A DNA stretch of 64,000 bases from Euprymna scolopes (GCA_053919585.1 CM132823.1); one strand, 5' to 3'. Positions 29,305 to 57,924 are shown, counted from the first letter of the stretch. Notes: generated by a model not told the origin, from the sequence alone. Translations and numbers: made by a program.

Positions 29305-32300
29305 GCACCAATATTTCGCCATGAAATATGAATCGTATACTCTATGGAAATATGAGAAGTACCAATATTTTGCCATGAAATATGAATCATATACTCTATG
29401 GAAATATGAGAAGCACCAATATTTTGCCATGAAATATGAATCGTATACTCTATGGAAATATGAGAAGCACCAATATTTTGCCATGAAATATGAATCGTAT
29501 ACTCTATGGAAATATGAGAAGCACCAATATTTTGCCATGAAATATGAATCATATACTCTATGGAAATATGAGAAGCACCAATATTTTGCCATGAAATATG
29601 AATCGTATACTCTATGGAAATATGAGAAGTACCAATATTTTGCCATGAAATATGAATCGTATACTCTATGGAAATATGAGAAGCACCAATATTTTGCCAT
29701 GAAATATGAATCATATACTCTATGGAAATATGAGAAGCACCAATATTTTGCCATGAAATATGAATCATATACTCTATGGAAATATGAGAAGCACCAATAT
29801 TTTGCCATGAAATATGAATCGTATACTCTATGGAAATATGAGAAGTACCAATATTTTGCCATGAAATATGAATCGTATACTCTATGGAAATATGAGAAGT
29901 ACCAATATTTTGCCATGAAATATGAATCGTATACTCTATGGAAATATGAGAAGCACCAATATTTTGCCATGAAATATGAATCGTATACTCTATGGAAATA
30001 TGAGAAGCACCAATATTTTGCCATGAAATATGAATCGTATACTCTATGGAAATATGAGAAGCACCAATATTTTGCTATGAAATATGAATCGTATACTCTA
30101 TGGAAATATGAGAAGTACCAATATTTTGCTATGAAATATGAACCATATACTCTATGGAAATATGAGAAGCACCAATATTTAGCCATGAAATATGAATCGT
30201 ATACTCTATGGAAATATGAGAAGTACCAATATTTTGCTATGAAATATGAACCATATACTCTATGGAAATATGAGAAGTACCAATATTTTGCCATGAAATA
30301 TGAATCGTATACTCTATGGAAATATGAGAAGTACCAATATTTTGCCATGAAATATGAATCGTATACTCTATGGAAATATGAGAAGCACCAATATTTTGCC
30401 ATGAAATATGAATCATATACTCTATGGAAATATGAGAAGCACCAATATTTTGCCATGAAATATGAATCGTATACTCTATGGAAATATGAGAAGCACCAAT
30501 ATTTTGCTATGAAATATGAATCGTATACTCTATGGAAATATGAGAAGCACCAATATTTTGCCATGAAATATGAATCGTATACTCTATGGAAATATGAGAA
30601 GCACCAATATTTTGCCATGAAATATGAATCGTATACTCTATGGAAATATGAGAAGCACCAATATTTTGCCATGAAATATGAATCGTATACTCTATGGAAA
30701 TATGAGAAGCACCAATATTTTGCCATGAAATATGAATCATATACTCTATGGAAATATGAGAAGTACCAATATTTTGCCATGAAATATGAATCGTATACTC
30801 TATGGAAATATGAGAAGCACCAATATTTTGCCATGAAATATGAATCGTATACTCTATGGAAATATGAGAAGCACCAATATTTTGCCATGAAATATGAATC
30901 GTATACTCTATGGAAATATGAGAAGCACCAATATTTTGCCATGAAATATGAATCGTATACTCTATGGAAATATGAGAAGTACCAATATTTTGCTATGAAA
31001 TATGAACCATATACTCTATGGAAATATGAGAAGCACCAATATTTTGCCATGAAATATGAATCGTATACTCTATGGAAATATGAGAAGTACCAATATTTTG
31101 CCATGAAATATGAATCATATACTCTATGGAAATATGAGAAGCACCAATATTTTGCCATGAAATATGAATCGTATACTCTATGGAAATATGAGAAGCACCA
31201 ATATTTTGCCATGAAATATGAATCGTATACTCTATGGAAATATGAGAAGCACCAATATTTTGCCATGAAATATGAATCGTATACTCTATGGAAATATGAG
31301 AAGCACCAATATTTTGCCATGAAATATGAATCGTATACTCTATGGAAATATGAGAAGTACCAATATTTTGCTATGAAATATGAATCGTATACTCTATGGA
31401 AATATGAGAAGCACCAATATTTTGCCATGAAATATGAATCGTATACTCTATGGAAATATGAGAAGCACCAATATTTTGCCATGAAATATGAATCGTATAC
31501 TCTATGGAAATATGAGAAGTACCAATATTTTGCCATGAAATATGAATCGTATACTCTATGGAAATATGAGAAGTACCAATATTTTGCCATGAAATATGAA
31601 TCGTATACTCTATGGAAATATGAGAAGTACCAATATTTTGCCATGAAATATGAATCGTATACTCTATGGAAATATGAGAAGCACCAATATTTTGCCATGA
31701 AATATGAATCGTATACTCTATGGAAATATGAGAAGCACCAATATTTTGCCATGAAATATGAATAGTATACTCTATGGAAATATGAGAAGCACCAATATTT
31801 TGCTATGAAATATGAATCGTATACTCTATGGAAATATGAGAAGTACCAATATTTTGCTATGAAATATGAACCATATACTCTATGGAAATATGAGAAGCAC
31901 CAATATTTTGCCATGAAATATGAATCGTATACTCTATGGAAATATGAGAAGTACCAATATTTTGCTATGAAATATGAACCATATACTCTATGGAAATATG
32001 AGAAGTACCAATATTTTGCCATGAAATATGAATCGTATACTCTATGGAAATATGAGAAGTACCAATATTTTGCCATGAAATATGAATCGTATACTCTATG
32101 GAAATATGAGAAGCACCAATATTTTGCCATGAAATATGAATCATATACTCTATGGAAATATGAGAAGCACCAATATTTTGCCATGAAATATGAATCGTAT
32201 ACTCTATGGAAATATGAGAAGCACCAATATTTTGCCATGAAATATGAATCGTATACTCTATGGAAATATGAGAAGCACCAATATTTTGCCATGAAATATG

Positions 32301-34240
32301 AATCGTATACTCTATGGAAATATGAGAAGCACCAATATTTTGCCATGAAATATGAATCGTATACTCTATGGAAATATGAGAAGCACCAATATTTTGCCAT
32401 GAAATATGAATCGTATACTCTATGGAAATATGAGAAGCACCAATATTTTGCCATGAAATATGAATCGTATACTCTATGGAAATATGAGAAGCACCAATAT
32501 TTTGCCATGAAATATGAATCGTATACTCTATGGAAATATGAGAAGCACCAATATTTTGCCATGAAATATGAATCGTATACTCTATGGAAATATGAGAAGC
32601 ACCAATATTTTGCCATGAAATATGAATCGTATACTCTATGGAAATATGAGAAGCACCAATATTTTGCCATGAAATATGAATCGTATACTCTATGGAAATA
32701 TGAGAAGCACCAATATTTTGCCATGAAATATGAATCGTATACTCTATGGAAATATGAGAAGTACCAATATTTTGCTATGAAATATGAACCATATACTCTA
32801 TGGAAATATGAGAAGCACCAATATTTTGCCATGAAATATGAATCGTATACTCTATGGAAATATGAGAAGTACCAATATTTTGCCATGAAATATGAATCAT
32901 ATACTCTATGGAAATATGAGAAGCACCAATATTTTGCCATGAAATATGAATCGTATACTCTATGGAAATATGAGAAGCACCAATATTTTGCCATGAAATA
33001 TGAATCGTATACTCTATGGAAATATAAGAAGCACCAATATTTTGCCATGAAATATGAATCGTATACTCTATGGAAATATGAGAAGTACCAATATTTTGCT
33101 ATGAAATATGAATTGTATACTCTATGGAAATATGAGAAGCACCAATATTTTGCCATGAAATATGAATCGTATACTCTATGGAAATATGAGAAGCACCAAT
33201 ATTTTGCCATGAAATATGAATCGTATACTCTATGGAAATATGAGAAGTACCAATATTTTGCCATGAAATATGAATCGTATACTCTATGGAAATATGAGAA
33301 GTACCAATATTTTGCCATGAAATATGAATCGTATACTCTATGGAAATATGAGAAGCACCAATATTTTGCCATGAAATATGAATCGTATACTCTATGGAAA
33401 TATGAGAAGTACCAATATTTTGCTATGAAATATGAATCGTATACTCTATGGAAATATGAGAAGCACCAATATTTTGCCATGAAATATGAATCGTATACTC
33501 TATGGAAATATGAGAAGCACCAATATTTTGCCATGAAATATGAATCGTATACTCTATGGAAATATGAGAAGTACCAATATTTTGCTATGAAATATGAATC
33601 GTATACTCTATGGAAATATGAGAAGCACCAATATTTTGCCATGAAATATGAATCGTATACTCTATGGAAATATGAGAAGCACCAATATTTTGCCATGAAA
33701 TATGAATCGTATACTCTATGGAAATATGAGAAGAACCAATATTTTGCTATGAAATATGAATCGTATACTCTATGGAAATATGAGAAGCACCAATATTTTG
33801 CCATGAAATATGAATCGTATACTCTATGGAAATATGAGAAGCACCAATATTTTGCCATGAAATATGAATCGTATACTCTATGGAAATATGAGAAGCACCA
33901 ATATTTTGCCATGAAATATGAATCGTATACTCTATTGAAATATGAGAAGTACCAATATTTTGCTATGAAATATGAATCGTATACTCTATGGAAATATGAG
34001 AAGCACCAATATTTTGCCATGAAATATGAATCGTATACTCTATGGAAATATGAGAAGCACCAATATTTTACCATGAAATATGAATCGTATACTCTATGGA
34101 AATATGAGAAGCACCAATATTTTGCCATGAAATATGAATCGTATACTCTATGGAAATATGAGAAGCACCAATATTTTGCCATGAAATATGAATCGTATAC
34201 TCTATGGAAACCTGAGAAATACCAATATTTTGCTACAGAT
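29305..34240. repeat. Tandem satellite, 91 x 54 bp
   Basis: Unit g[c/t]accaatattttgc[c/t]atgaaatatgaa[t/c]c[g/a]tatactctatggaaatatgagaa. Unit starts at 29305 and 34219 are 4914 = 91x54 bp apart, so there is no net indel. Confidence 0.99.
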
Positions 34241-34288
34241 GACGTGACCCCCATCATTAACGTTAATGATGGGGGTCACGTCATCTGT
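34235..34288. other. Perfect 54-bp palindrome, putative parvoviral terminal hairpin
   Basis: acagatgacgtgacccccatcattaac|gttaatgatgggggtcacgtcatctgt marks the end of the viral segment. A second copy ends the third EVE at 55364-55407. Confidence 0.8.
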
Positions 34289-34977
34289 TTTTTTTTACCT
34301 GATAATTTTAAAATAAAATAGAATTGCATTGCATGGGTCCGAGCCCTGATGCGGGTAGTGCCACGGCCTAATATCATAGTCATTGCTTAATATAGTTTTT
34401 AGCTGTGACCTAATTCCTTGACCTAGTTTTGTAATTTTCAATCGTCGCTGACGCTGATTCGATGACGGTTCCTTTGAATTTCTTTAACGATCCCATGTCT
34501 GATGGTCGATCTGAAAGGGAATATCGAACATGCGAAATAATATTGAATCATGCGAAATAATATTGAACCATGCCACTGTCATATCAGTTCAAGATGCAGT
34601 ATTATAAGAACGATTTGAGTTTAGTGTATATATATAGTTTATTTACAATATGTACATCATCGTCAGTGTGTTTTAGAAAATATTTACAAAAGTCCAAGGA
34701 ATCATTGATCAGTGTCATTGAGCGTATAGTTTATCCATCGGAGTCACTGAGCACTTCCTCACATTCTAAAAATAGCTGTGACGTCGGCCCTCGTCCGGTG
34801 ATTTGTCGTAGGTACAGTGCCAATGTGTAGTTAATGTTTTTTTTTTTTTTTTGGGGGGGGGGGGGTCACGAAGATGTCGTCGTCCGGCTCCTCTGACTCA
34901 CTGAGCACTATGACCCCGGAGACCGGCGTGTCCTCGGCCAGTGTGTCCTGTGAGAAGCTCGCTGCCGCGGGGCTGGG

Positions 34978-36711
34978 TTAGCTTGGTCCTCTAGGACACC
35001 TGTGTGCTTTGCAACCGTGCGTTTTACAGTACTGTGTTGGCTGGTTTTCGTCTATTTCGCAGGCCTGTATCATCCAGTCCTCGACGTCGGAGTCGTCGGA
35101 GATTCGCACGTTTTCTACTTCTTCTCCAGCCATGAGGTCCTGGAACAGCTGTCTGCGTGCTTTCATGTATCCTGCCTGTTTGTCTGGTGACAATCCTTCC
35201 ACTGCTTGGACAGTGAAATTTGTAGATGCGGCTGGTTCTTCTATATCCTCCTCCTCCTGGAATTGGTAGGTCTGGTTCGTATAGTCCATGACGTATTGTC
35301 TCCAAACGGTTAGCCACATTGTAGGATTCAATTCTCGGACTCCCCAACCCTTTAGGGCCGGCATAGGCCTTTTGGTTTCGTATAGGAACATGCGGTTGTG
35401 CATTGCCATGCGTTCCTGGGGTACGTGTCGCCATGGGTCGTCGTTGGATGTAGAGAGACACGGTGTCCTTTCTAGGTATCGTTCGGCCTGGTGCTTTACG
35501 TTGACTGCTGTCGTTGTGCCCTCAAGTATACATTTGCCCTCCTCTACATTTTGTGGTGTAAACCACATTTCGTCTGTGTAGATAAGGGTCTTATCGACGC
35601 ACGAACCGAACGTGAAGTTGTCGGAGGCCTGACATCGCATTCGGCCGCAATTCATGAGGCCGTTCCTGATCGATCTGAGCACGTATGATTTGCCAGAGTT
35701 ACTGGGTCCCGTTATGTGGAACCCGTTCTTTTTTGCTCGTATCATGTGGCATACTTCGAACAGGTTTCTACCGAACTCAACCGGATCGAAATTGTGGTAT
35801 TGGGCCCATGCGTCGTAAATGTCCAACGACTTCTGCACTGACCAATACCTGTTACCGTCCATGCTGAAGAGGTCCTTCTTTTGACGGATCTGTTCAAATA
35901 TGGGGGTGACCTTTGTTTGGATCTGTAGGTCGCTTGCTGCCGCCTGCATGATCGGTTGAATATTTTGGGTATTGGTAAAGATGTGTTCCCACGTGTCCCG
36001 GACCTTTGTATTGGCAGATTGTTTACAGTAGAGCATGACTTTTGCCATGTCAGTACTGTTACATTTTTTCATTATGTCTAAAATGAATTTATATTTTTGA
36101 CCTCTCAGGGTCGATTTTCCAGTTAGACCTGTGTCTACGGTCGGCTCGTCCTGTTTCTTTAAGGGCTTTTCGCATATTTTTCTGTACGCGGCTAGTTGAC
36201 CGGGCGTTTCCAGGTGCCCTGCAGCTACTACTGAGCGTTTCGACGGGTCCATTGTCAGGTAACTGCAGAGTCCGTACGGGTTGTAAATCTTCTGGCATGA
36301 AATTTGGTACGGGTTGATTTGCCGTTCCGCCTGTAGTTTTTTCATTTGCACGTAACTGTGCTCACACGTAGGGTGGTTGTGGTGCCACGTGATCATGTGG
36401 AAATGGTCTACGTCTGCGCAATGTTTCAGACTGCTTGGCCCCGCTACGAGGTATACTATTATGTAGGGTCGCTGGTCGAGAATTCTGGCGAAGTACCCGT
36501 GGGTAGCGTTTGATGGCTGTAACGTTATCGCATCCTGGTATGGTTTGGTCTCCGTAGTTCCTGGACTTAGTCTGAATTCTCCCTCGGTTTCCCAGCGGTA
36601 GATCCAGGTGTAGGGACGGATTTGTTTGCCGTTGACAGTTTCTCCGTTTACTAGGTCGTTGAATTGTTGTTGTTCCTCTCTTTGGGTGTTGCTGCTGGTC
36701 GTGGCTTCCAT
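34978..36711 (-). CDS. NS1: Endogenous parvovirus NS1 (HUH nuclease + SF3 helicase), copy 1
   Basis: HUH DHFHMI, catalytic-Tyr-like YGLCSYL, Walker A GPSNSGKS, Walker B IYTDEM, motif C STSN. TATAAAA ~45 nt upstream (36757-36763). Confidence 0.9.
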   Translation of the reverse strand: MEATTSSNTQREEQQQFNDLVNGETVNGKQIRPYTWIYRWETEGEFRLSPGTTETKPYQDAITLQPSNATHGYFARILDQRPYIIVYLVAGPSSLKHCADVDHFHMITWHHNHPTCEHSYVQMKKLQAERQINPYQISCQKIYNPYGLCSYLTMDPSKRSVVAAGHLETPGQLAAYRKICEKPLKKQDEPTVDTGLTGKSTLRGQKYKFILDIMKKCNSTDMAKVMLYCKQSANTKVRDTWEHIFTNTQNIQPIMQAAASDLQIQTKVTPIFEQIRQKKDLFSMDGNRYWSVQKSLDIYDAWAQYHNFDPVEFGRNLFEVCHMIRAKKNGFHITGPSNSGKSYVLRSIRNGLMNCGRMRCQASDNFTFGSCVDKTLIYTDEMWFTPQNVEEGKCILEGTTTAVNVKHQAERYLERTPCLSTSNDDPWRHVPQERMAMHNRMFLYETKRPMPALKGWGVRELNPTMWLTVWRQYVMDYTNQTYQFQEEEDIEEPAASTNFTVQAVEGLSPDKQAGYMKARRQLFQDLMAGEEVENVRISDDSDVEDWMIQACEIDENQPTQYCKTHGCKAHRCPRGPS

Positions 36712-36879
36712 CCTGACGGTCTGGAGCGAGTGCCTGATCTGTGGTGGATGTGCGTCTTTTATAGCACGTTATTGCGTCGTAAGAAATTAGAATCTGCTGC
36801 CGGTTTAGTAATTATCTGTAGAAGTAATTGAATTATGCTGACGTTGATGAATTTGAAAAATAGGTAATTGATTTCTGCC

Positions 36880-37150
36880 CTATTTGTTTACGAAACGCCC
36901 ATAAGGCATGCCGAATATTTGACCGTTGTGGTCCCATATGTGTGTGCCGTGATTATGAAGCATTCCTTTCGCTGATTGGCCGTGGAAATGTCTATTGGGC
37001 GGTACAATGGTGTGGTATTCGTAACTGAAGTCCGCCGATGTTGCTGATAGTGCTTGTTTGTGGGTGGTGACTGGGACCTTCTGCGGGTGGATAAGTGCGT
37101 CACAGACTATTTCAATTTCTAGCATATAAGTTATTTCGAAGTTGAAATAT
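36880..37150 (-). pseudogene. Probable parvoviral capsid (VP) C-terminal fragment
   Basis: Open frame YFNFEITYMLEIEIV...GMPYGRFVNK* with a beta-strand pattern like the last jelly-roll strand, contiguous with the NS1 promoter. The assignment is inferential. Confidence 0.45.
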
Positions 37151-37814
37151 AAAATAGAATTGCATTGCATGGGTCCGAGCCCTGATGCGTTAAGTGCCAC
37201 GGCCTAATATCATAGTCATTGCTTAATATAGTTTTTAGTTGTGGCCTAATTCCTTGACCTAGTTTTGTATTTTTCAATCGTCGCTGACGCTGATTCGATG
37301 ATGGTTCCTTTGAATTTCTTAAACGATCCCATGTCTGATGGTCGATCTGAAAGAGAGTATCGAACATGCGAAATAATATTGAATCATGCGAAATAATATT
37401 GAACCATGCCAATGTCATATCAGTTCAAGATGCAGTATTATAAGAACGATTTGAGTTTAGTGTATATATATAGTTTATTTACAATATGTACATCATCGTC
37501 AGTGTGTTTTAGAAAATATTTACAAAAGTCCAAGGAATCATTGATCAGTGTCATTGATCGTATAGTTTTTCAATCGGAGTCACTGAGGACTTCCTCACAT
37601 TCTAAAAATAGCTGTGACGTCGGCCCTCGTCCGGTGATTTGTCGTAGGTATACTGCCAATGTGTAGTTTATTATGTTTTTTTTTTTTTTTTTGGTGTTAC
37701 GAAGTCGTCCTCGTCCGGCTCCTCCGTTTCTGAGTCGCTGAGCACTATCACTCCGGAGACGGGCGAGTCCTCTCCGACTGTGTCCTGTGAGATGCTCGGT
37801 GCTGCGGGGCTGGG

Positions 37815-39534
37815 TTAGTTTGTTACTGTAGGACATCTGTGTGCCTTGCAACCGTGTGTCTTACAGTACTGCGTCGGCTGGTTTTCGTCTATTTCGCATG
37901 TTTCAGTCATCCAGTCCTCGACGTCGGAGTCGTCTGATATGCGCAGGTTTTGTACCTCCTCTCCTGCCATGAGGTCCTTGAAGAGCTGTCTCCGAGCTTT
38001 CATGTATCCTGCCTGTTTGTCCGGTGACAGGCCTTCTACTGCTTGGACAGTGAAGTTTGTAGATGCGGCTGGTTCGTCTATATCCTCCTCCTCCTGGAAT
38101 TAGTACGTCTGGTTCGTATAGTCCATGACGTATTGTCTCCAGACGGTTAGCCACATGGTTGGATTTAGTTCTCGGACTCCCCAACCTTTTAGGGCAGGCA
38201 TGGGCCTTTTGGTCTCGTACAGGAACATTCGGTTGTGCATTGCCGTTCGTTCAAGGGGTCGTCGTTACTTGTAGACAGGCATGGTGTTCTCTCTAAGTAT
38301 TGTTCCGCCTGATGCTTTACGTTTACTGCTGTTGTAGTACCCTCCAGGATGCACTTTCCCTCCTCTACATTCTGTGGTGTGAACCACATTTCGTCCGTGT
38401 AGATGAGGGTCTTGTCCACGCAGGATCCGAACGTGAAGTTGTCGGAGGCCTGACATCGCATCCGGCCGCAGTTCATGAGGCCGTTCCTGATCGACCTCAG
38501 CACGTACGATTTGCCGGAGTTACTTGGTCCTGTTATGTGGAACCCGTTCTTTTTTGCGCGTATCATATGGCAGACCTCGAATAGGTTTCTTCCGAACTCC
38601 ACTGGATCGAAGTTATGATGTTGGGCCCACGCGTCGTAAATGTCCAACGACTTTTGCACTGACCAATACCTGTTACCGTCCATGCTGAAGAGGTCCTTCT
38701 TTTGACGGATCTGTTCGAATATGGGTGTGACCTTTGTTTGGATCTGTAGGTCGCTTGCTGCCGCCTGCATGATCGGTTGAATATTTTGGGTATTGGTAAA
38801 GATGTGTTCCCACGTGTCCCGGACCTTTGTATTGGCAGATTGTTTACAGTAGAGCATGACTTTTGCCATGTCAGTACTGTTACATTTTTTCATTATGTCT
38901 AAAATGAATTTATATTTTTGACCTCTCGGGGTCGATTTTCCAGTTAGACCTGTGTCTACGGTCGGCTCGTCCTGTTTCTTTAAGGGCTTGTCGCATATTT
39001 TTCTGTACGCGGCTAGTTGACCGGGCGTTTCCAGGTGCCCTGAAGCTACTACTGAGCGTTTCGACGGGTCCATTGTCAGGTAACTGCAGAGTCCGTACGG
39101 GTTGTAAATCTTCTGGCATGAAATTTGGTACGGGTTTATCTGTCGTTCCGCCTGTAGTTTTTTCATTTGCACGTAACTGTGCTCGCATGTAGGGTGGTTG
39201 TGGTGCCACGTGATCATGTGGAAGTGGTCCACGTCTGCGCAATGTTTCAGACTGCTTGGCCCCGCTACGTGGTATACTATTATGTAGGGTTGCTGGTCGA
39301 GAATTCTGGCCAAGTACCCGTGGGTAGCGTTTGCTGGCTGTAACGTTAGCGCATCCTGGTATGGTTTGGTCTCCGTCGTCCCCGGCTTTAGGCTGAATTC
39401 TCTCTCGGTTTCCCAGCGATAGATCCAGGTGTACGGCCGGATTTGTTTGCCGTTGACTGTTTCTCCGTTAACTAAGTTGTTGAATTGTTGTTGTTCCTCT
39501 CGTTGGGTGCTGCTGCTGCTGGTCGTGGCTTCCA
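37815..39534 (-). pseudogene. NS1: Endogenous parvovirus NS1, copy 2 (disrupted)
   Basis: Same motifs as copy 1. A frameshifting deletion at ~38255 removes WRHV, and there is a CAA>TAA stop at ~38100. TATA at 39581-39587. Confidence 0.9.
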
Positions 39535-39689
39535 TCCTGACGGTCTGGAGCGAGTGCTTGATCTGTGGTTTATGTGCGTCTTTTATAGCACGTATATGCG
39601 TCGTAAGAAATAAGAATCTGATGCCGGTTTTGTAATTATCTCTGTAAGTAATTGAATTATGCTGACGTTGATGAATTTTGAAAGTAGCT

Positions 39690-42600
39690 GGGTTATTCCA
39701 GCCCAATTCATCCAGCCCCGACACACCCCCTCTTGGATTTTTTTCATATTTACACCATACAAACTTTGGGTTAAAACTAAGAAATCTGCAATTTCAGCCC
39801 AGTTGGATTTCAGGAACATATTTTTTTTCACAGTTGGTTTCGGCCTGGAAATCAAAAATTGCTATCTCATGACGTAGAATTTTCGACTCCCGGCGTTTTA
39901 CAAAATTTGCATTTTTGTTGCAAAAAATAAAGCTCTGGAGCTAAATATTCACACATATAAGGTTTTGAGGGCAAGGAATCCAAAAATCATGGTTAGAAAG
40001 ATGGCAAATGAGAGGAAGTACCTTATTTTTACCATTTTAGGTGGTGCCGCAGCACTTTTTTAGAGCTTGTTTGGGGCGATATTTTATTGAGAAAAAAACA
40101 TAACTGTGGTGCTTTGCCAGACTTCTCCTTTGGATTTTTAAAGTGACAATGGGTTGGAAATTACAAAAATCAAATAAAACCTTTCGGCATATTTGACATT
40201 TCCAGACACTAAAGCCTCAAAATTGGCATTTTTATAAAAATTTAAGGATTTTTTGGTGAATTTGGCAACAATCTAATCTTAAGTTATGATCAATATCTAG
40301 AGCTGAAAAAAGACTTGGATCGGCTCATTATAGCCCATTTTCATAATATAATGTCAAATTACATCATATAAAAGGATATGGACCCCTACTTCACAGTCAA
40401 AATGGACAAAAAAATAGTCGAAAATAAAAGACTGATGCATAATCTAGTTTATCATAAGAAAAACTGTCAAACAAATATAAAACAGACATTTGTTATAACT
40501 CCAACTATCGACTTAATCTGTCAAAATAGTTCTGAGTCTTATTTTTCTCCTCCTTGGTGATGAAATATGTTCTACCATTCACTGAAATACTTGGGGTCTG
40601 CACTCTCATAACGACCTTGCTTAGTGGAATATAGCCTCTATCCCTATTAGTTGGCCAGTGGAATTGATGTGATGGTCCATGTGGATGCAGGAATTTGCAA
40701 GTAAGATCTTTCTCTTCCCTGTTGACACTCTCAATCAATGCTAACCACCAATATCCATCAAAAATGCAAGTAATGTAGTCATTGCATTTGAGCAACTCCA
40801 GAGTTTCATCTAGCGGCGTAGGCATGTCCAGGAAAGAATGGTCGATAAAGATCGTTGTGTCAGCACTCAGTTGCTTGCCCTGAATAGTAAACTGAGAAGT
40901 TGGTTTGAAATAGTGACAGCTCCTTGTACCAGGCACAGTATCTCCCAGTTTATATCTCATTTGAAGTTTCTCTCGAACTGAAACCATGTCTTCTTTGTCG
41001 ATCTTTAGAAACATGATACCAGTGATCGATGATCTGCAAAAGTCTGCAACAGCATGAAAAGTGAGTATTTGGTCTTTTATTGGCCTTTGCAAGCTGGCAC
41101 GGAGAACTTTGCGTTTGACAGCCCCACCAATTCCATCACAGGGTGATTTGCCATGGCTAGTTGCAAAAAATGCCCAAGTTGCATCAATTCCAAAATCTGA
41201 TGAGTGATGGCAAAGGTTAATAAATGCTTTGAAGTTTTTATATTGGGCAGCACAGCCATCGCTGAAGTACTCTACACTCTTGATCCAGGGAAATTTCTCT
41301 TTGATGTACAACATCACCATTCTTTGCAGTTCATGCACAAAACAGGTGTCATGCTCAAGGTCATCTGAAATGATGCATAATGAGATCTGTTGAAGTTTAC
41401 CATTGTTATCTTTGTAATAAATTACCACTGGATGTATGGTACACTGGTCTTTGTTCCAGTGATATCCCTGGATCTCATCTTGCACCACGTAGTGATAATT
41501 TTCCGCAAAGTCCAAGAGAAGTATACATTCGGTCTCAGTTATTTCTTCTCTTCTCTTTTTTAGATACTGCGCTTGGCTCTTTGCTGTGAAGGAATGGGTC
41601 GTTAGATTATCAACATTGTATACCAATATCTCTATGAAGTAATCTACATCAGCCATCTGTGTCCGTAGCATTGTCCTATCCACACTCTCCCACTGACTAT
41701 ATGACATCTCACTGTCAATTTCCAATTCAGTAAATTTATCTCTGATATACTTCTCTAGAGCAGGGAAACCTGGGCATTTAGGACAACGGTGGACCATACA
41801 TTCAAGACTATTGGTGTCGCAAACTACCAAGGCCATCAAATCTTTGTAAGTGATATTAAAATTGGGATTTTCAGTTGGTACATTAGCAGCACTCTCATCT
41901 CTGGATTCTTCAGCTTTCCTTCTGAGCTGAGTCTTGACAGTTGAAACAAAGCAGTCAACAAGCAATTTGGTATTTTGATGGTGGGTGCAAACACAAACTG
42001 AATGAGAACCTGATGTCAAGACGGTGACGCACCATTTTGGACGGAGCTCACAGAACTTTGAAAGACCTATTTTGTGTTCAGGATAGCTTTCTTTGTAAGC
42101 TACATAAAGCTCCTTAAGATTGCATAATAGGAGCCGTTTCTGGACATGAACTTTATTACCAATGCTCACAAAATCTTTCCCTCCAGGCATTAACCGTGAA
42201 AATTCATTGTCCTCATAGAAAGCCAAGACAGAATTGATAACCTCTTTTGAGAGACCTCTCCCCTTCTTTTTCTGTGGCAATGAAAGAATACCTCGATCCT
42301 TTTTCAGTTGCCGTGCTTCACGTACTATATATTCAGAGACATTGAAATATTCAGACACCTCTTTTCGAGACCAACTTTCCGGAGCTAAAGTCATCAACTG
42401 GATCCTCTCACTGGTTTTCATTTCTTTATTCTCAAGTTTGTCCTTCATTGCATCCAACAAACAATCATAATCTTTTGCCTTTGCCACTAAATCCGTTTGA
42501 CTCGTTTGGCTGCTAATAGGGCTTCCTAATTCAGGGCTAGAGATGTTAAGGACTTTGACAGCTGCCTCTACTTGCATTTCATAGTTTCTTTCTAATTTCT

Positions 42601-43858
42601 CTCTGACAATATTGATTTTTGTGTGCTTCTGCATTCTACCGGTTTTTATAGGGGATATATCAAACATCATTAGACTGTCATTCAGTTTCTCTCTCTTTTG
42701 TTCAATTTGCGACTCATTTTCAAGGTCTTGGTTGTCACTTCCTTCTGTTTCACTTGTATCTTCTAACTTCTTGGCAGCTACTTCACAGTGACGGCAAAGC
42801 TTCCAGCCAGGAACAACATGGTAGCCCTTCTGCTTTAGCATCTCAGCCATGTCTAACTTGATAGCACGATCACCCTTTACCTTTCTTTTGTGCTTCAAAA
42901 AGATGTTGCAGCACTTTGTATATTTTTTCTCAAAGTAATGCCCCAAATGAAATTCGTGATACCTGCAAATGTTAGCAACGGTTTCATCAGTGAGTGTGAC
43001 ACCAGCTCTTAATTTGAGCACAGTTCTTACATCATGCTCTAATGCAGTTATTGGTGTTGAAGATGGCTTCAGATTGCGGTGACATGCACTCTTCATTAGT
43101 AATCCAAAAGAACATTGAGGAGCACTTGTCATCAATGATGTATCTCCTCCCTCTCGTTTCCTTGGTTCAGAAGACATTCTTAATTTATTGCTCTGGAAGA
43201 AAGATGTGAAATAATAATTCACAATGAGCAGAATATGCAATACTCAACTGAATCAGAACTTTTTGAGATATTGGAATCAGAAAAATTTTAACCTAATTTC
43301 TGATTCCAAAAACAATTCTTTTAATATCATTTTAAACTTAATTTTCCACTGCTGGTACTGATAAATATTTATTGTTTTTAAACTATTAGTAAAAATAAAC
43401 TTTAGATCATAATAACATCAAAATAAGGTGTAAATTTAATTTACTTGCATAAAATAAACAAAACAGAAATTGAAACTTCATGAAAATTCGTTCTTAACCT
43501 TTAGAAAATGCAGTTTATTTACAAGTTTATAAAAAAAATGGTTTTCAAGAAAAATAATATCAACTTTATTGTCAATTAAATCAAACGTAGAATATAAAAC
43601 GTGCCTTTTTTATAATTTATTTATTTTATGCTTTTGTCCTCTATGACAAGGCAAAAGATGTGAAAAAGAACATCTTACCAAGTTTGTTTAATCTTGGCCA
43701 TGTTAATGTTACTGATAAAACTTCATAAAATCAGTAAAACCACGTCCCTTTCCTCCTAACCTTAAGTCCTGATGGTAATACGAATAATGAAATTTAATAA
43801 AATTAACAAAAGATAAAAAGTATATGCGATGTGGATGTAACAGGGTTTTTAATAGTTC
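39690..43858 (-). mobile_element. Sola2-like DNA transposon, one end truncated
   Basis: Begins GGGTTATTCC exactly where homology to the viral upstream region ends. No matching TIR at the other end, which abuts the VP fragment. Confidence 0.65.
40505..43177 (-). CDS. DDD transposase, Sola2-like (~890 aa, uninterrupted)
   Basis: VCVCTHH, LLDFAENY, FSDGCAAQYKN, FFATSHGKSPCDGIGG. Likely start is MSSEP after a ttccag acceptor. Confidence 0.8.
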   Translation of the reverse strand: MSSEPRKREGGDTSLMTSAPQCSFGLLMKSACHRNLKPSSTPITALEHDVRTVLKLRAGVTLTDETVANICRYHEFHLGHYFEKKYTKCCNIFLKHKRKVKGDRAIKLDMAEMLKQKGYHVVPGWKLCRHCEVAAKKLEDTSETEGSDNQDLENESQIEQKREKLNDSLMMFDISPIKTGRMQKHTKINIVREKLERNYEMQVEAAVKVLNISSPELGSPISSQTSQTDLVAKAKDYDCLLDAMKDKLENKEMKTSERIQLMTLAPESWSRKEVSEYFNVSEYIVREARQLKKDRGILSLPQKKKGRGLSKEVINSVLAFYEDNEFSRLMPGGKDFVSIGNKVHVQKRLLLCNLKELYVAYKESYPEHKIGLSKFCELRPKWCVTVLTSGSHSVCVCTHHQNTKLLVDCFVSTVKTQLRRKAEESRDESAANVPTENPNFNITYKDLMALVVCDTNSLECMVHRCPKCPGFPALEKYIRDKFTELEIDSEMSYSQWESVDRTMLRTQMADVDYFIEILVYNVDNLTTHSFTAKSQAQYLKKRREEITETECILLLDFAENYHYVVQDEIQGYHWNKDQCTIHPVVIYYKDNNGKLQQISLCIISDDLEHDTCFVHELQRMVMLYIKEKFPWIKSVEYFSDGCAAQYKNFKAFINLCHHSSDFGIDATWAFFATSHGKSPCDGIGGAVKRKVLRASLQRPIKDQILTFHAVADFCRSSITGIMFLKIDKEDMVSVREKLQMRYKLGDTVPGTRSCHYFKPTSQFTIQGKQLSADTTIFIDHSFLDMPTPLDETLELLKCNDYITCIFDGYWWLALIESVNREEKDLTCKFLHPHGPSHQFHWPTNRDRGYIPLSKVVMRVQTPSISVNGRTYFITKEEKNKTQNYFDRLSR

Positions 43859-44180
43859 ACGCTCCGCTGCCGTTGTCGTTCGCGACTGTGCTCGCCTCCG
43901 AATCGACTTCCATACCTGCTTCGCAGCTAGCAGTGTAAGTAGGATCAAGTTTAATTCGTTTAGGTGGGGGATCGAAGTAGTCGTCCAGTCCCAGGTAATG
44001 CTTTGCTCTGAGTGCCCCTCGCGATAAAGCTCCCAACACACCTGTTCCAGCAGAGTCCTTGTAGAATTGGTCATCTGCTTCTTTGGTCTTGCCTTTTCCG
44101 TAGTTGAAATCGTGTCTTTTTGCGGCCCAGTCCAAGCGATTTAGGGGAGGCAGGTATTTTTTGTAGTCGAGGTTTTTGCC
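43857..44180 (-). pseudogene. VP1: Parvoviral VP1-unique region fragment with phospholipase A2 domain
   Basis: GKNLD...PLNRLDWAAKRHDFNY...EADDQF (parvoviral PLA2 HDxxY motif), then NLS-like PPPKRIKL and a Gly/Ser-rich start. Confidence 0.85.
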
Positions 44181-45130
44181 CTGAATAAAACCTGAATCGC
44201 ATACTCCATGGAAACATGAGAAATACCAATATTTTGCTACAGATAAGATGCCATCATCCAAACACGAATCGCATTGGAATTCGGATGACGAAGCAAATTC
44301 TTGTTACATTAATTCCTTCGACAGAATCTGTGAAACAACAAAGTTTTTCCAGTTCACAAATTCTTCATGACATTTCAGACATTTGCAATTTGTTTTGGCT
44401 CTGTCCAAAGTTTTGATGAAACATGACTCACATACTCCATGAAAACATGAGAAGCATTTGAAGAGTCTAGTTGTCTGTAATACCTTTTTTCTTTTCTTTG
44501 TGAGTTTATTTTATTGTTTCTAAATGTATAGTGACATTTTTTAAATATAATTTTCTTTTTTCATCCTGTTTTCTGTCGTGTGTGTTTGTATTAGTTTTTT
44601 CTTAATTGTTTTGTGTATTTTCTTCTTAATCATCAGTCTTTCATATATTGTGTAATTGGTGCTCCCATCCTCATGTGTGAATGGTAGGTGTATGATGCAA
44701 AGGTCGCATAAGAAACCAAACATACCGATATATAAGAAATAAATGTAGATTTATTTAGATAAAAATGCAAGAGAGAATAAGTGACAATAAGAGTTTGGTA
44801 AAAAGAGATGATTGGAAATGTTGCTTGTGGTATTGGAATGCGTTATTGTCAATCTTTACTTGTTAATAGTCCAGCGAAAAGAGAAAGAAATCTATACAAA
44901 AGGAAGTGACGTAGTTGCATTGCCCTCTGGTGGCAAGGCATGTGTTGTGTTTGTGAGTTTGTTGGCTGGGAAATTTCAATTCCCACAAATTCTCATCTTC
45001 TCCAGCAAGAGTTAATAAGTTATTGTGGACAGTGACAGAAGGAGACAGATCTGTCTTCCTTGCCAGTTGAGTCCCCTGATGATTTTTGTGTTTCTACAAC
45101 TGGCTAAAAATAGTTCCTAAGAGACAAATG
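44173..45130 (-). repeat. Duplicate of host segment 20047-21058 (RING/B-box fragment + motif-rich upstream region)
   Basis: Colinear high-identity match, sandwiched between viral VP and NS1 fragments. Confidence 0.9.
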
Positions 45131-45630
45131 TGGAACCCGTTCTTTTTGGCCCGTATCATGTGGCATACCTCGAAGAGGTTCCGCCCGAATTCGACTGGAT
45201 CGAAACCGTGATACTCGGCCCATGCGTCGTAAATGTCCAGGCTTTTTTGTACAGTCCAGTAGCGGTTTCCGTCCATTGAGAACAGGTCCTTTTTCTGTCA
45301 TATCTGCTCGAATATTGGTGTCACTTTTGTTTGGATTTGCAGGTCACTGGCCGCGGCCTGCATTATGGGCTGAATGTTTTGAGTGTTCGTGAAAATGTGT
45401 TCCCATGTATCACGAAGTTTAGAGTTTGTAGACTGCTTGCAGTACAACATGACCTTGGCCATGTCGGTGCTGTTGCAGCGCCGCATGATGTCCAATATGA
45501 ACTTGTATTTTTGTCCACGTAGTGTGGACTTACCAGTGAAGCCTGTCTCAACATTCGGTTCCTCAGTTTTCTGCAGCGGTTTGTCACAGATTCTTCTGTA
45601 GATCGCAAGTTGCCCGGGCGTCTCCATGGT
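45128..45630 (-). pseudogene. NS1: Parvovirus NS1 internal fragment, copy 4
   Basis: ETPGQLAIYRRICDKPLQK...KVTPIFEQI*...YWTVQKSLDIYDAW...KKNGFH. A distinct variant, disrupted. Confidence 0.9.
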
Positions 45631-45782
45631 GTTTGTCCTCTCCCTCATGAATTGGCACTTCGGCAATTTAAGCCTCAGGCCGTGCTCCCTCAGGCTGCTC
45701 ATCACCTGCCGCAGGTGGACATAGTGCTCCTCCGGGTTCCTTGAAAATATCAGGATGTCGTCTAGGTAGGCCATGGCAAAGT
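45631..45782 (-). mobile_element. Gypsy RT fragment duplicated from 49570-49721
   Basis: FAMAYLDDILIFSRNPEEH...KCQFMRERT, essentially identical to the downstream copy. Confidence 0.9.
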
Positions 45783-46337: not shown

Positions 46338-49300
46338 CACACTGGCCCCAGATCGCCAAACTTTGGAAATAGAGATTAGGCGAAGTCTTACTTTGATTTT
46401 TCTGGCATTTTCTCGTTTTTTTTTTCAGTTTTATACCCAAGTACAGAGTAACTAAAGCATATTTTGACTTAGAGAAAGTGTATAAAAGGATACAGGAACC
46501 AAAAATGCTTTGATTTTGTCTAAATTCACGAAATTAGGAGAAATTATAAAATTGGAGTAGTTTCGTTGACTCAACCGAGATAATTCAGTTTGTGTTATGT
46601 TTCTCATTCCATACTGGCAGATAAGAATATAAAATAAAACAACAAATAAATCACCATCTAGTCAAGAAAAATGTCTTCAACGAGGCTTGCATACCACCGC
46701 TTCGGTAGACCTACCAACCGACCATGCGACCGAATGGTGTGATCGTCAGCTCCACATTCCGTGCAAAATTTTCTTGCCTGAAAATGAGTGGTTATGTTCT
46801 GGATGATTGGATCTGATCGTTCCAGTAACCTGGCCATTACATCAGTTAATTGGAGCAGTGGGTCAGTTTTCCTCGACAAGAACTGCAAGTAGTTGCGAAT
46901 GTCTTTGTTGTTCGACTCTAAGCATTCCTCTGACAGACTTCCCAGTCCATGAGCATCATTTAGACTCATCAATTCTGTTGAATGATGAAGAGTCCCATGC
47001 AAGGTGTGATTCATCATGACCCATGGGAAGTTGTCACACAAATTGTATGAAGTCTGCTCACAAAGTTCTTTGAACTTCATCAGATCGATCTTACGTGACG
47101 ACGACACAACCGATAGAACAGTGGAGAGCTGACGATGAAGGAGAAGCAGGTTTTCTCGGTGTTTTTCATCAACTAATTTTTCGATTGAAGCTAGAACTTC
47201 CTCTGAAAAGAAGCGACGGCCTTGTGGACCATTGGTTGATGTCCCACCTTTTCCACCAGCAGAGTTGACTCTATCAAGATACAGGCCTGTCTCTGTGTAG
47301 ATCGCTTTGAGAACTCGATCCTTCGTTCGACTGACAGGTTCACCACGAACGTCGGACCTCTCAATCCACTGTTGGTAGTCAGCATGGCACCGATACAAAA
47401 CCTTCAGGAACCACGTTGTTCCATTGATGTACGAATGAGTCACAGTGATGCTTGATTGGTCAGATGTTGTGAGTGGCTTCTTGGTTAATCCTTGACGAGT
47501 CTCAAAATCTCCTTGTTTTGCTTTGACTTTACCATTCTCATCAACTAGTTCATTGTACAGCTCGAGAGAATTCTTTGCCGATCTGTTAATGGGAAAGCCC
47601 TCTGCAACCTTGGTTCTGTCAGTCCAATCAGCCCCTCCCAACCCTGAAATGTCCCTTTTGAATTTCAGATCCTTCATTGAATCGTGTACTATGACATTCA
47701 CATCATATCCTTGACCATCAGCAGTAACAAAAATTCCATCTGAAGCCAACTCTTGGCGTGCTTTGTCTGTAGTGGGAACGACCATATTAAGATCTTCATC
47801 GGTCTCTTTCTCCCTGATCAAGAATAGTGGTCTTAATGTTCTACAGTTGTTTGGCGAGTGATTCTGCCACAGACAAAAAGAAGAACCGTCCTGGTAACGA
47901 GCAAGTAGTTTCAGTGGTGTAATGCCATACTGGAACATATTTTCAGTTGCGTCCAGCATACTTGTAGACTTCCACACTACTTGTTGACCAGCACCGTCAC
48001 ATCCATCTTTAAACACCATTTCAAGGACACCATCTCTGCATTTATCTTTTATGATTTTCTTAGGGATCAAGGATATGATGGACTCGATCGTCATTTTCAC
48101 TAGGTCCTTGTACTGCACCTGAACTCCACTGTCATCAAGAACTGGGGAGATACTGGGGCGGAGCTTTTTACGTCCCTCCAACAACTCATTGCTGGTTGGA
48201 AAATAGATTCCCTTCGCAGCAAGTATGTGCCTCATCTTTCTCATTTGCTCCCTACTCAACGTTAATGAATGCATCAATGCAATCGCTTCATTGATCTCAA
48301 AGGAATGAATATCGTTCACATTGGACGAAAATATCTCATACCCAACTCGAGCTGTCTTCTTTTCCGATTGAATATTCACACGATGAATCATATATCCTAG
48401 CAACTGAGTGACTGAAAGCTCAGGACATTCCTTTGCAGCGTATTCTTCAATGTAGTCGAGCAGACCCTGTGTTCTTTCCTTCTGCATTCTCTCCCCTAAG
48501 TTGACAAAACTCTTCCTTTGCTTCTTTCCAACTTGTGGACAGTTCCCTTCCATTTCGATTTCTTCTTTCGATGCTTGAGCAAGGATTTCGGTGTTTGCTA
48601 GGCGTTTCTTTTTCAATCGTTTGAAATGGTTCCATGCATTCAAGAAGAAGCCACTGATTTCTTTGTTTTCGTGAAAACCATGAGTTTCTCTGAATTGGCG
48701 AAAGCATTTGGCATATTCAGGTGGTTTGGTACGGCATAATGCAGCCTGACTAATGATGGCTTCGAAGACCTGATATTCTGTGGTGAGAACATTGTTGCCT
48801 GCCATCTGAATATGATAATTTCTTTTTTTTAAACTTCAGTTAACCCGATAATAGCCTGTAATGAAGAAAAAAGCATAGACATTAACTGAATGGTCATATA
48901 GAATAATAGAATACTCAAAATATTTGATAGAACATGTAAAAGCAAATTAAAACTTTGGCAAAATGCCCGAATTTGGTAATTTGGTCCCAGATCCCGGAAA
49001 AATGAAAATTCTATTTGTCAGAAAAAAAATTTACTGCTAAGATTTACAAAACAAATTTGACATAGTTAGAAAGGTCTTAGGCTATATTTTTTGAAACATA
49101 TATACTTTGATATGTAAATCTTAGCGGTTTTTGAGCTATTTGAGGAATTGAACAAAAAATAAATGACAATTTTGCTGAAACATTAAGCTAAAATTTCACT
49201 AAATAAGCTTTTATCTTATCAAAATTTCATCTATTATACCACAAACAAGACCTCTGTTAGAAAAAAAAGATGAATTTAGTTATACAAATTGAAAAAATAA

Positions 49301-49998: not shown

Positions 49999-51324
49999 CA
50001 GGGTGGCCGAAAAGTCCCAGGACGCTATACATGTATTTTTAATAAAACACAGTATTTTTTAATGAAACACAAAACATATACATTCAACAAAAAAAGAGAA
50101 CTTTATTAGAAACAAAGCAGAAAACAACTAGAGTAATTTAGTGGTCTAGGGGATCAGTATGTTGGCCCTCGTTGTTCTTGCACAATTCCATTCGCCTCCA
50201 GGTTCTTTGTGCCATTTTTTTTAGAGAATTCCTTGATACGCTAGCAAAAGCTGCAATAATCGCATGCTTTAGCTGATCAATGGTTTCGTATCTAATACCA
50301 GAAACTTGACCTTTAATTAAACCCCATAATGAGTTGTCTGGAGTGGTCAAGTCGGGGCTTCGTGGTTGCCAAGCAAAAGAATTTGATCCGCGCCCAATCC
50401 ATCGATCACGAAAATCTGCATTTAGCAGCGCTCTCACAGGAAGTGCATAATGTGCGGGTGCACCATCTTGCTGTAGCCATACACGATCCTTAATACCAAG
50501 TTCTATTAACTTGGGAATGAACCAGTTTCTAATCATGTTGGCATATGATTCCTGATTGACATTGCCATCAAAGAAATAAGGACCAATCAAATGTTCAGAT
50601 GTCAATGCAGCCCAAATCATGACATGTGGAGGATTATTTTCAACTTCTTCTTTGTAAAAGGGGTTTTCTTTAGCCCAGAAATATATGTTTCGACTTTTAG
50701 AACTTTTATAAATGGCGCATTCATCGCTGAATATTATCTTTCTGTGATTTCTTGGACCATCAGGAAAGCGTTTTAAAAATTTCTCACAGAATTTTTTTCT
50801 TCGATCCATATCTTCATCTGACAACTGATTTACCGAGATGGGCTTATAAGCTTTGACATCCAAGTCCTTTTTCATATGATCCATCATGGTAGCCCTTGGT
50901 ATTCCAAGTTCAGCAGAACGTTTTCTGGTGGATTTCTTGGGAGACTGTTGCAGTGATTCTTGAACACCAGCACACGTTTCCTTTCGTGTTTTAGGCCTGC
51001 CACTTCTTGCCTGATCCAGAACGCTACCTGTTTCAAAAACTTTCTTCTCCCACAGATACAGATTACTTCTTGATAGCACGGGCTTTCCAAATCTTTCTGT
51101 GAAAGCACTTCGAACATCTTCCATAGTCATGTCATTCCTGATGCGGTCGTGAACCCAAACAGCAGCAATTAAGCGCTCCTCAACAGTAAATACACTGATG
51201 TCAGTCATAACCTGAAAAAATAAATGAAATAAATTGTTTTAACAACATTAGAATATTAAAATCAATCATATTTAACAGCATTAAAATATTAAAAATAGTG
51301 TCCTGGGACTTTTCGGCCACCCTG
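49999..51324 (-). mobile_element. Tc1/mariner transposon, rosa (DD41D)-like, full length
   Basis: TIR cagggtggccgaaaagtcccaggac with TA TSD. Splits Gypsy RT at FCV|DFR. Confidence 0.95.
50138..51208 (-). CDS. DDxD transposase (DD42D by my count), intact 356 aa
   Basis: RSGRP, FSDE, QQDGAPAH, WQPRSPDLTTPD. Confidence 0.92.
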   Translation of the reverse strand: MTDISVFTVEERLIAAVWVHDRIRNDMTMEDVRSAFTERFGKPVLSRSNLYLWEKKVFETGSVLDQARSGRPKTRKETCAGVQESLQQSPKKSTRKRSAELGIPRATMMDHMKKDLDVKAYKPISVNQLSDEDMDRRKKFCEKFLKRFPDGPRNHRKIIFSDECAIYKSSKSRNIYFWAKENPFYKEEVENNPPHVMIWAALTSEHLIGPYFFDGNVNQESYANMIRNWFIPKLIELGIKDRVWLQQDGAPAHYALPVRALLNADFRDRWIGRGSNSFAWQPRSPDLTTPDNSLWGLIKGQVSGIRYETIDQLKHAIIAAFASVSRNSLKKMAQRTWRRMELCKNNEGQHTDPLDH

Positions 51325-55363: not shown

Positions 55364-55407
55364 TGACGTGACCCCCATCATTAACATTAATGATGGGGGT
55401 CACGTCA
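55364..55407. other. Second copy of the putative viral terminal hairpin
   Basis: tgacgtgacccccatcattaacattaatgatgggggtcacgtca, with one central mismatch. Confidence 0.8.
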
Positions 55408-55858
55408 TCTGTTTTTTTTTTACCTGATAATTTTTAAATAAAATAGAATTGCATTGCATGGGTCCGAGCCCTGATGCGGGTAGTGCCACGGCCTAATATC
55501 ATAGTCATTGCTTAATATAGTTTTTAGCTGTGACCTAATTACTTGACCTACTTTTGTAATTTTCAATCGTCGCTGACGCTGATTCGATGATGGTTCGTTT
55601 GAATTTCTTTAACGATCCCATGTCTGATGGTTGATCTGAAAGAGAATATCGAACATGCGAAATAATATTGAATCATGCGAAATAATATTGAACCATGCCA
55701 ATGTCATATCAGTTCAAGATGCAGTATTATAAGAACGATTTGAGTTTAGTGTATATATATAGTTTATTTACAATATGTACATCATCGTCAGTGTGTTTTA
55801 GGAAATATTTACAAAAGTCCATAGAATCATTGATCAGTGTCATTGATCGTATAGTTTA

Positions 55859-57845
55859 TCAATCGGAGTCACTGAGCACTTCCTCACATTCTAAAAATAG
55901 CTGTGACGTCAGCCCTCGTCCGGTGATCTGTCGTAGGTACAGTGCTAATGTGTAGTTTATGATTTTTTTTTTTTTTTTTTTTTTTTTGGGGGGTCACGAA
56001 GATGTCGTCGTCAGGCTCCTCAGTCTCTGACTCACTGAGCACTATCACACCGGAGACCGGTGTGTCCTCGACGAGTGTGTCCTGTGAGAAGCTCGGCGCC
56101 GCGGGGCTGGGTTGGTTTATTCTTGTTGGGCACCTGTGTGCTTTGCAGCCGTGCGTTTTGCAGTATTGTGTTGGTTGGTTTTCGTCTATTTCGCAGGGCT
56201 GTACCATCCAGTCTTCTACGTCGGAGTCGTCGGAGATGCGCACGTTTTCTACTTCTTCTCCGGCCATAAGGTCCTGGAATAATTGTCTGCGTGCCTTGCA
56301 GTACCCTGCTTGTTTGTCTGGCGACAACCCTTCCACTGCCTGCACAGTGAAGTGTGTCGATGCCGCGGGTTCCTCTATGTCCTCCTCCTCTTGGAACTGG
56401 TATGTTTGGTTTGTGTAGTCCATGACGTATTGTCTCCATACGGTCAACCACATCGTCGGATTCAATTCACGGACTCCCCAACCTTTTAGTGCCGGCATCG
56501 GTCGTTTTGTTTCGTATAGGAACATTCGGTTGTGCATTGCCGTTCGTTCCTGGGGTACGTGCCGCCATGGATCGTCGTTGGAAGTCGAGAGACACAGTGT
56601 TCTTTCGAGGTAGCGTTCTGCCTGGTGTTTGACGTTCACCGCAGTTGTCGTCCCTTCCAGGATGCATTTTCCTTCCTCTACATTTTGTTGGGTAAACCAC
56701 ATTTCGTCAGTGTATATTAATGTTTTGTCTACGCATGATCCGAACGTGAAGTTGTCGGATGCTTGGCAGCGCATCCTGCCGCAGTTCATGAGGCCGTTCC
56801 TGACCGATCTAAGCACGTACGATTTGCCCGAGTTACTGGGTCCCGTTATGTGGAACCCGTTCTTTTTCGCCCGTATCATGTGGCAAACCTCGAACAAGTT
56901 TCTGCCGAACTCTACTGGGTCGAAATTGTGATACTGCGACCATGCGTCGTAAATGTCTAACGACTTTTGGACGGTCCAATACCTGTTTCCGTCCATGCTG
57001 AAGAGGTCCTTTTTCTGTCTTATTTGTTCGAAGATTGGTGTCACCTTCGTTTGTATTTGTAAGTCGCTAGCTGCCGCCTGCATAATGGGTTGTATGTTTT
57101 GCGTGTTAGTGAAGATGTGGTCCCACGTTTCACGCACTTTCGCACTGGCAGATTGTTTGCAGTAGAGCATGACTTTAGCCATGTCCGTACTGTTACATTT
57201 TCGCATGATCTCGAGGATAAACTTGTATTTCTGTCCTCTGAGGGTCGATTTTCCAGTCAGGCCTGTGTCTACTGTTGGTTCCTCTGGTGTCTTTAATGGC
57301 TTGTCGCAGATTCTTCTGTAAGTGGCGAGTTGCCCGGGCGTCTCCAGGTGTCCTGCAGCTACCACTGAGCGTTTTGCCGGGTCCATCGTCAGGTAACTGC
57401 AGAGACCGTACGGGTTGTAGATCTTTTGGCAGGAGATTTGGTAAGGGTTGATTTGCCGTTCGCTTTGTAGTTTCTTCATTTGCACGTAAGTGTGCTCACA
57501 TGTCGGGTGGTTGTGGTGCCACGTGATCATGTGGAAATGGTCTACGTCTGCGCAGTGTTTTAAGCTGCTTGGTCCTGCTACGTGATATACGACTATGTAG
57601 GGACGCTGGTCGAGAATTCTGGCGAAGTAACCGTGGGTGGCGTTAGATGGCTGTAAGGTTATGGAATCCTGGTATGGTTTGGTTTCTGTAGATCCTGGAC
57701 TTAGTTTGAATTCTCCCTCGGTTTCCCAACGGTAGATCCAGGTGTAGGGACGGATCTGTTTGCCGTTGACAGTTTCTCCGTTCACCAGGTCGTTGAATTT
57801 TTGTTGTTCCTCTCTTTGGGTGCCGCTGCTGGTCGAGCCTTCCAT
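55859..57845 (-). CDS. NS1: Endogenous parvovirus NS1, copy 3 (near intact; 1-nt frameshift in an A25 run)
   Basis: All NS1 motifs present and no internal stops. With 24 instead of 25 A the frame would end ...INYTLALYLRQITGRGLTSQLFLECEEVLSDSD*. TATA at 57891-57897. Confidence 0.9.
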
Positions 57846-57924
57846 CCTGACGGTCTGGAGCGAGTGCCTGAACTCTGGTAGATGTGCGTCTTTTATAGCG
57901 CGTTAATGTGTCGTAAGAAATTAG

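Follow-up and report, generated by a model that had tools for sequence, protein, structure and literature searches.

Parvovirus genomes are monosense, ambisense or bipartite according to the accessible part of one account (PMC13426907), and in all of them NS occupies the left side and VP the right according to the accessible part of another (PMC11357303). For monosense genomes NS before VP is treated as a family rule, and this order underlies the programme of early NS and late capsid expression. A stretch of 64,000 nt in the 5.9-Gb genome of Euprymna scolopes (G000:C41:1550001-1614000, the window hereafter) raises the question of whether the rule can be reversed. The first-pass annotation of its minus strand had read a putative VP C-terminus ending at 36880, a TATA-driven NS1 starting about 170 bp later and a hairpin about 700 bp past NS1, and had offered two sources for this order: a lineage with VP first, or a segmented or rearranged genome.

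Structure and history of the window

Three NS1 copies and one NS1 fragment were found by self-comparison of the window (Table 1). In copy 1, the VP stop lies exactly where it had been placed, and NS1 begins (ATG 36711) after a spacer of the expected length, which contains its TATA box, no hairpin (longest stem 5 bp) and no poly(A) signal. The right hairpin also exists, 690 nt from the copy-1 NS1 stop, but this distance overstates the tail: the NS1 frame stops about 80 codons ahead of the C-terminal region that other copies conserve, and the true 3' tail is thus nearer 450 nt. The tail carries AATAAA at 34643-34638, a position kept in 9/9 family-A tails, and its hairpin meets a host repeat via a 6-nt shared word. 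A plus-strand frame of 86 codons in the tails of the three window copies was rejected as a gene, being cut short in L039 and L041 and not seen in other subfamilies.

Copies 1 and 3 do end in NS1, UTR and hairpin with no VP between, as had been described. Copy 2 has no hairpin of its own, its tail being joined by a 7-nt microhomology to the interior of the copy-1 VP; since this joint recurs in contigs of two public runs from one study, an assembly error is argued against. Copy 2 is 91% identical to copy 1 at the nucleotide level (dS 0.28, dN/dS 0.065), with its NS1 frameshifted near 38250, and copy 3 is 5'-truncated within the spacer, where it is fused to what we take to be an env-like ORF. A PLA2-bearing VP fragment does lie upstream of copy 2, as noted earlier, but a transposon of 4.17 kb that ends inside the copy-2 spacer separates the two. 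For each transposon end, 40-41 genome matches are listed, most of them at 99-100%. Beside the PLA2 piece, the transposon lacks its far part and VP lacks about 1.5 kb, so that this piece now abuts the cut transposon; insertion followed by deletion would be the simplest history of this joint. Adjacent copies differ at dS 0.3-1.0, and the window contains two different genomes in a damaged, rearranged tandem that a young transposon has cut.

Table 1. Features of the window, with positions counted from its first nucleotide.
Feature	Position	Strand	Description
Right terminal hairpin, copy 1	34235..34288	-	Perfect 54-nt palindrome, fold z -10.4
3' tail, copy 1	34289..34977	-	Remnant of conserved NS1 C-terminal region, then UTR
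NS1 copy 1	34978..36711	-	577 aa, open; HUH, Tyr motif, Walker A/B; Pfam Parvo_NS1 E 6e-18
VP-NS1 spacer, copy 1	36712..36879	-	168 nt; TATA box 36763-36757
VP C-terminus, copy 1	36880..37155	-	Last 88 codons, residues 528-615; stop 36880-36882
Microhomology	37149..37155	-	7 nt; copy-2 tail joined to interior of copy-1 VP
Copy 2	37149..39689	-	Partial spacer, TATA 39587-39581, NS1 from 39535, tail without hairpin
DNA transposon, not viral	39690..43857	-	Young, truncated; 912-aa ORF 40505-43243
VP N-terminal piece, part of PLA2 domain	43858..44173	-	98% nt identity to L039 VP
Internal NS1 fragment, more diverged variant	45128..45631	-	75-79% nt identity to the three window copies
Copy 3	55364..57919	-	NS1 open over 57845-55884, then the tail; right hairpin partial, 55364-55415

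Gene order across the host genome

The window has dozens of relatives on other contigs, and sixty flanking stretches, each of at most 10 kb, were fetched. The family has a common layout of about 4.6-5.0 kb on one strand, consisting of a left hairpin (about 120-215 nt), VP (about 615 aa, PLA2 domain at the N-terminus), a TATA-containing spacer of 165-240 bp, NS1 (600-660 aa), a tail and a perfectly palindromic right hairpin different from the left one. Full units with both hairpins are found in four subfamilies (L039, 4800 nt; L071, 4566 nt; L079, 5012 nt; and L080, 3763 nt with a short NS1 match), and all of them read VP and then NS1, as the suggestion of a VP-first lineage would have it. In size, and in having two gene cassettes with a hairpin at each end, they resemble Parvoviridae; both genes lie on the same strand, contrary to the ambisense arrangement, and within one hairpin pair, contrary to a segmented genome of the AdSDV type.

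The same order emerges from counts. The fetched loci contain 44 distinct VP C-termini (47 rows minus three duplicate places), of which 38 lead into an NS1 start 136-282 nt further on, one runs into an internal-deletion joint and five have neither behind them. The genome as a whole holds at least 151 helicase and at least 98 VP matches on 45 contigs, and when the 98 VP matches were joined with 150 of the 151 helicase matches, both lists being lower bounds, the NS1 helicase lay downstream on the same strand for 34 of the 83 dispersed VP matches listed, upstream on that strand for 0/83 and on the opposite strand for five, with none listed for the remaining 44. The known monosense genera, with NS to the left of VP, would show the reverse. 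On inspection, three of the five opposite-strand cases proved to be rearrangements, either fold-backs at the right hairpin or an inversion within NS1. Among VP matches in tandem clusters, 12 of 15 have a helicase downstream (four of these 12 also upstream) and three have none. Different subfamilies are stacked in tandem at three sites.

The order is the same across subfamilies whose NS1 proteins are 38-58% identical and whose VP proteins are down to about 30% identical. The gene-order evidence is drawn entirely from integrated copies in one host genome, and on it the VP-first order belongs to the lineage itself, a conclusion held with more confidence than the full explanation developed below. 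Segmentation or rearrangement is not supported as the origin of this order: although the window is indeed rearranged, VP before NS1 is native to the lineage, and the NS1-only copies are truncations.

VP and NS1 proteins

NS1 matches the Pfam family PF01057 (Parvo_NS1, E 6e-18) and AAV Rep (E 1e-9), and as expected of a Parvoviridae NS1, the HUH and Walker A/B motifs are present in 9/9 proteins and the Tyr motif in 8/9. The PLA2 domain of VP, a motif that most Parvoviridae carry at the VP1 N-terminus, is recognised by PF08398 on the full VP (E 3.8e-7, above cut-off). The two orphan peptides of the window are 98% identical at the nucleotide level to the start and end of the family VP. The C-terminal one, at 98% nt identity to the full VP of L039, begins at the last (aligned) strand of the predicted VP jelly roll, and its 98-100% identity to complete VP frames of 615 aa at other loci confirms the capsid assignment that had been proposed for it.

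A structural check of this assignment, also suggested by the first-pass annotation, was carried out on the VP core. The PDB sequence search with VP gave no match, and a first full-length VP model from nine sequences was poor (pLDDT 38); the matches of that model were set aside because PLA2 alone could produce them, and the core was refolded without PLA2 on 61 sequences (pLDDT 63.6). The top Foldseek rows for this core are all parvoviral capsids (E 7e-10 in PDB, 5e-14 in BFVD), and structural fitting to parvoviral capsids gave, for VIA, a Z of 16.4 and an rmsd of 5.5 over 259 residues. As modelled, the VP core folds as a parvovirus capsid with a single jelly roll. VP is 10-15% identical to solved capsids, and by sequence the match to known parvoviruses, in the comparison with the monosense heterotelomeric genera, is limited to the helicase. 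Many family frames are open, and a capsid profile finds 92 representatives.

Termini, signals and selection

The left hairpins have stems of 54-62 bp (fold z -20 to -23); the longest stem in the spacers is 5-9 bp in 9/9. Having no hairpin between VP and NS1, the layout is neither that of a permuted canonical genome nor that of a segmented one. Both orientations of the asymmetric left-hairpin loop are present: flip is seen in 11 rows (about 10 events) and flop in seven (two events). Flip and flop ends together are the expected trace of terminal resolution in rolling-hairpin replication, and the left loops of the integrated copies would thus preserve an indirect trace of this mode of replication. 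A TATA-like word is found before VP in 5/7 copies and near the NS1 start in 5/6, while AATAAA occurs in 0/6 spacers.

Among the window copies dN/dS is 0.042-0.065, and other pairs of NS1 and of full VP mostly give 0.02-0.10, with a maximum of 0.28, at dS from 0.04 to more than 1. The C46 copies, which share their junctions, are the control for passive duplication and have dN/dS values of 0.44-0.71. These values show purifying selection between copies, and because differences between loci are mostly silent in both genes, the copies outside the C46 set appear to have diverged as functional viruses before capture.

No target-site duplication was found at the junctions of seven units, and ends are ragged at both hairpins, unlike the precise ends and target sites of a rolling-circle or cut-and-paste transposon. 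The right hairpin is kept more often than the left among copies.

Origin of the integrated copies

These sequences are probably integrated copies of a VP-first lineage, likely a linear ssDNA virus of cephalopods, which likely entered the germline through many separate captures. NS1, as an HUH nuclease and SF3 helicase, would drive rolling-hairpin replication with terminal resolution, leaving flip and flop left hairpins. VP is predicted to be expressed from a TATA promoter beside the left hairpin and NS1 from an internal TATA promoter, with both transcripts probably using one common poly(A) site past NS1. The usual positions of early-left NS and late-internal VP would thereby be exchanged, so that expression of NS1 from the internal promoter would have to come first or coincide with that of VP. 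Double-stranded replication forms may then have been joined to host breaks by end-joining at microhomologies, and the integrated copies would later have been cut by deletions and transposons; the C46 set, as one case, was probably copied passively together with a zinc-finger array. Ragged ends, microhomologies and the lack of duplications in seven units favour host end-joining over a precise integrase, and NS1 may help in integration.

If NS1, like AAV Rep, nicked its own hairpin and ligated it to host DNA, the family could be a germline-resident, self-integrating element that spreads within the genome as a rolling-hairpin transposon and has kept its capsid. At least 151 helicase and at least 98 VP matches on 45 contigs, numerous open frames, right hairpins retained more often than left ones and different subfamilies in tandem stacks at three sites would all suit such an element. 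We nonetheless consider it unlikely in view of the ragged ends at both hairpins, the seven units without target-site duplication, the dS of 0.3-1.0 between neighbouring copies and a constraint on VP that equals that on NS1; moreover, no burst of dispersed, nearly identical copies in differing flanks was seen, in contrast to the adjoining DNA transposon. Permutation is largely refuted and highly improbable. A canonical NS-VP parvovirus integrating from circular or head-to-tail replication forms could leave tandem and head-to-tail joints such as those at L043, L060 and in the window, but the hairpins flank the VP-NS1 pair and never occupy the spacer, NS1 is upstream on the same strand for none of the 83 dispersed VP matches listed, and subfamilies only about 30% identical have the order in common. 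Equally improbable is a two-segment virus on the pattern of Acheta domesticus segmented densovirus, whose NS-only and VP-only segments were sometimes joined. NS1-tail-hairpin copies without VP exist (window copy 3, L047, L048 and L050), yet they start raggedly inside the spacer or NS1, as 5'-truncated copies do, a left hairpin directly before NS1 was not seen in the loci examined, and 38 of 44 VP ends lead into an NS1 start.

Repeated germline capture of a VP-first virus is thus the preferred account, though the high copy number and the tandem hotspots go beyond simple capture and are unexplained by it. A bolder version, which is rather doubtful, would make the family a capsid-first coleoid lineage of subfamily rank that lives largely as a germline provirus, integrated by NS1, piling up at hotspots and still invading.

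Hosts, relatives and expression

Named homologues are limited to gene models from Sepia pharaonis (cuttlefish) and Octopus vulgaris, and the best-matching public entries are labelled mollusc metagenome, which makes coleoid cephalopods the likely host group. The small-share runs X18-X20 were rejected as host evidence. Relatives at 50-60% identity are present in public run assemblies, where VP and NS1 clusters lie on contigs of equal size (4078, 4065 and 3790), consistent with one segment. Scans of IMG/VR (with NS1, a VP alignment and an NS1 alignment) and one JGI scan gave no relatives and no free virus contig, and a search for fused gene models in other species, with the natural VP-NS1 fusion frame of C46 as query, found none. 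Raw poly(A) reads over the element are present in trace amounts (depth 0-5, mixed strands) and contain no transcript starts and no splice joints, so the promoters and transcripts described above are predicted ones. The even contig cover in RNA runs X1 and X2 was not counted as expression, as it may be DNA.

Relation to known parvoviruses

Monosense, heterotelomeric Parvoviridae include Protoparvovirus, Bocaparvovirus and Iteradensovirus. The lineage resembles this group, as characterised in the accessible parts of PMC13426907 and PMC11357303, in its size class (4-6 kb), two cassettes and unlike terminal hairpins as well as in its HUH and SF3 NS1, the N-terminal PLA2 of VP and the jelly-roll capsid, and differs from it in having VP before NS1 in the direction of transcription. 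The lineage is therefore parvoviral in the features that could be compared and departs from the known monosense genera in gene order. With the ambisense Densovirinae (Aquambidensovirus, from aquatic invertebrates) it shares invertebrate hosts, a PLA2-bearing VP and a VP promoter, here a predicted one, near the genome end; their VP is on the opposite strand, whereas the genes here are co-stranded, with NS1 at a predicted internal promoter. The available excerpt of PMC12297876 likewise concerns the ambisense type, while that of PMC13218726 does not mention parvoviruses. In the accessible text of PMC13426907, a PLA2-bearing ORF, but not the capsid, lies upstream of NS1 in the SwaBA-MePV-1-like 'megaparvoviruses', the hosts of which are revealed by endogenous copies as well; their capsid ORF follows NS1 and is without PLA2, and the genomes are large and likely homotelomeric, whereas in the present lineage the whole VP is upstream. 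The accessible part of PMC10267136 treats the monosense promoter order as a limitation that ambisense and segmented genomes get round; Acheta domesticus segmented densovirus, described there, escapes that order as the present lineage does, being bipartite where this one is monopartite.

Neither a VP-first monosense parvovirus nor a cephalopod parvovirus was found in the literature outside subscription journals, taxonomy proposals and supplements, where an earlier description is possible. The lineage is diverse and apparently undescribed, has the swapped order and is known here from copies integrated in a single genome. That a diverse lineage has the reverse order implies that the family rule is not binding, and its arrangement is a third solution alongside the ambisense and the segmented genome. 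How NS1 comes to be made first when its promoter would be internal becomes a clear question, and the timing of replication and capsid production is likely to differ accordingly. No parvovirus sequences appear to have been tied to cephalopods before, and with more than 150 helicase matches and preserved ends these make up a fossil record of unusual richness for studying how parvoviruses integrate and how hosts silence them.

Tandem clusters and multiplied copies

At the three cluster sites, one on contig C11 and two on C41, integrated parvovirus copies of different subfamilies stand head to tail on a single strand amid transposon pieces, an arrangement which resembles that of small-RNA trap loci. 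The stretch L043 from the same genome reads, at 6393-9772, from the end of VP through NS1 and half of the right hairpin into half of the left hairpin and the start of VP, the kind of head-to-tail joint that a circle or concatemer would be expected to give.

In three further stretches (L045, L046 and L049; G000:C46, 153-203 Mb), one insertion is present in about 15 copies. An internal deletion in this insertion joins VP to NS1 in frame, giving up to 741 aa, and the fusion copies adjoin C2H2 zinc-finger arrays. Junctions common to these copies, together with relaxed dN/dS, indicate that they were multiplied by duplication along with host DNA.

Variation in NS1 and VP

The frame in which NS1 terminates depends on the length of a run of A close to the 3' end of the gene, and thus an alternative NS1 C-terminus is possible. 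Past this run, at 34600-34900 of the window and likewise in other copies, subfamilies A and B share a conserved second frame. VP is about 110 aa longer in L082 and L087, two stretches representing one subfamily, the extra part lying upstream of the PLA2 domain.

Repeats and transposable elements around the viral copies

The truncated transposon that cuts viral copy 2 has dozens of 99-100% identical copies among the genome matches, some of which carry this end in inverted pairs with ~4-5.5 kb between; its ORF has no Pfam match above cut-off. The RAG1-like frame presumably encodes a Transib-type transposase. Some frames of the satellite are without stops, for up to 1678 aa. The satellite's unit derives from a dispersed repeat of the host, which adjoins the viral array at both ends as well.

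Viral clusters and neighbouring repetitive elements
Feature	Location	Detail
Stacked viral copies	G000:C11 3.92-4.05 Mb; C41 9.50-9.57 Mb; C41 1.58-1.65 Mb	
Satellite, 54-bp unit	window 29305-34233	91 copies at 97%
Truncated DNA transposon, very young	window 39690-43857	912-aa ORF
RAG1-like open frame, 725 aa	window 46658-48835	Pfam RAG1, E 8.9e-8
Transposase-like and retroelement frames surrounding viral copies	window 50138-51238, 54084-55180, 60062-61705, 61952-64000
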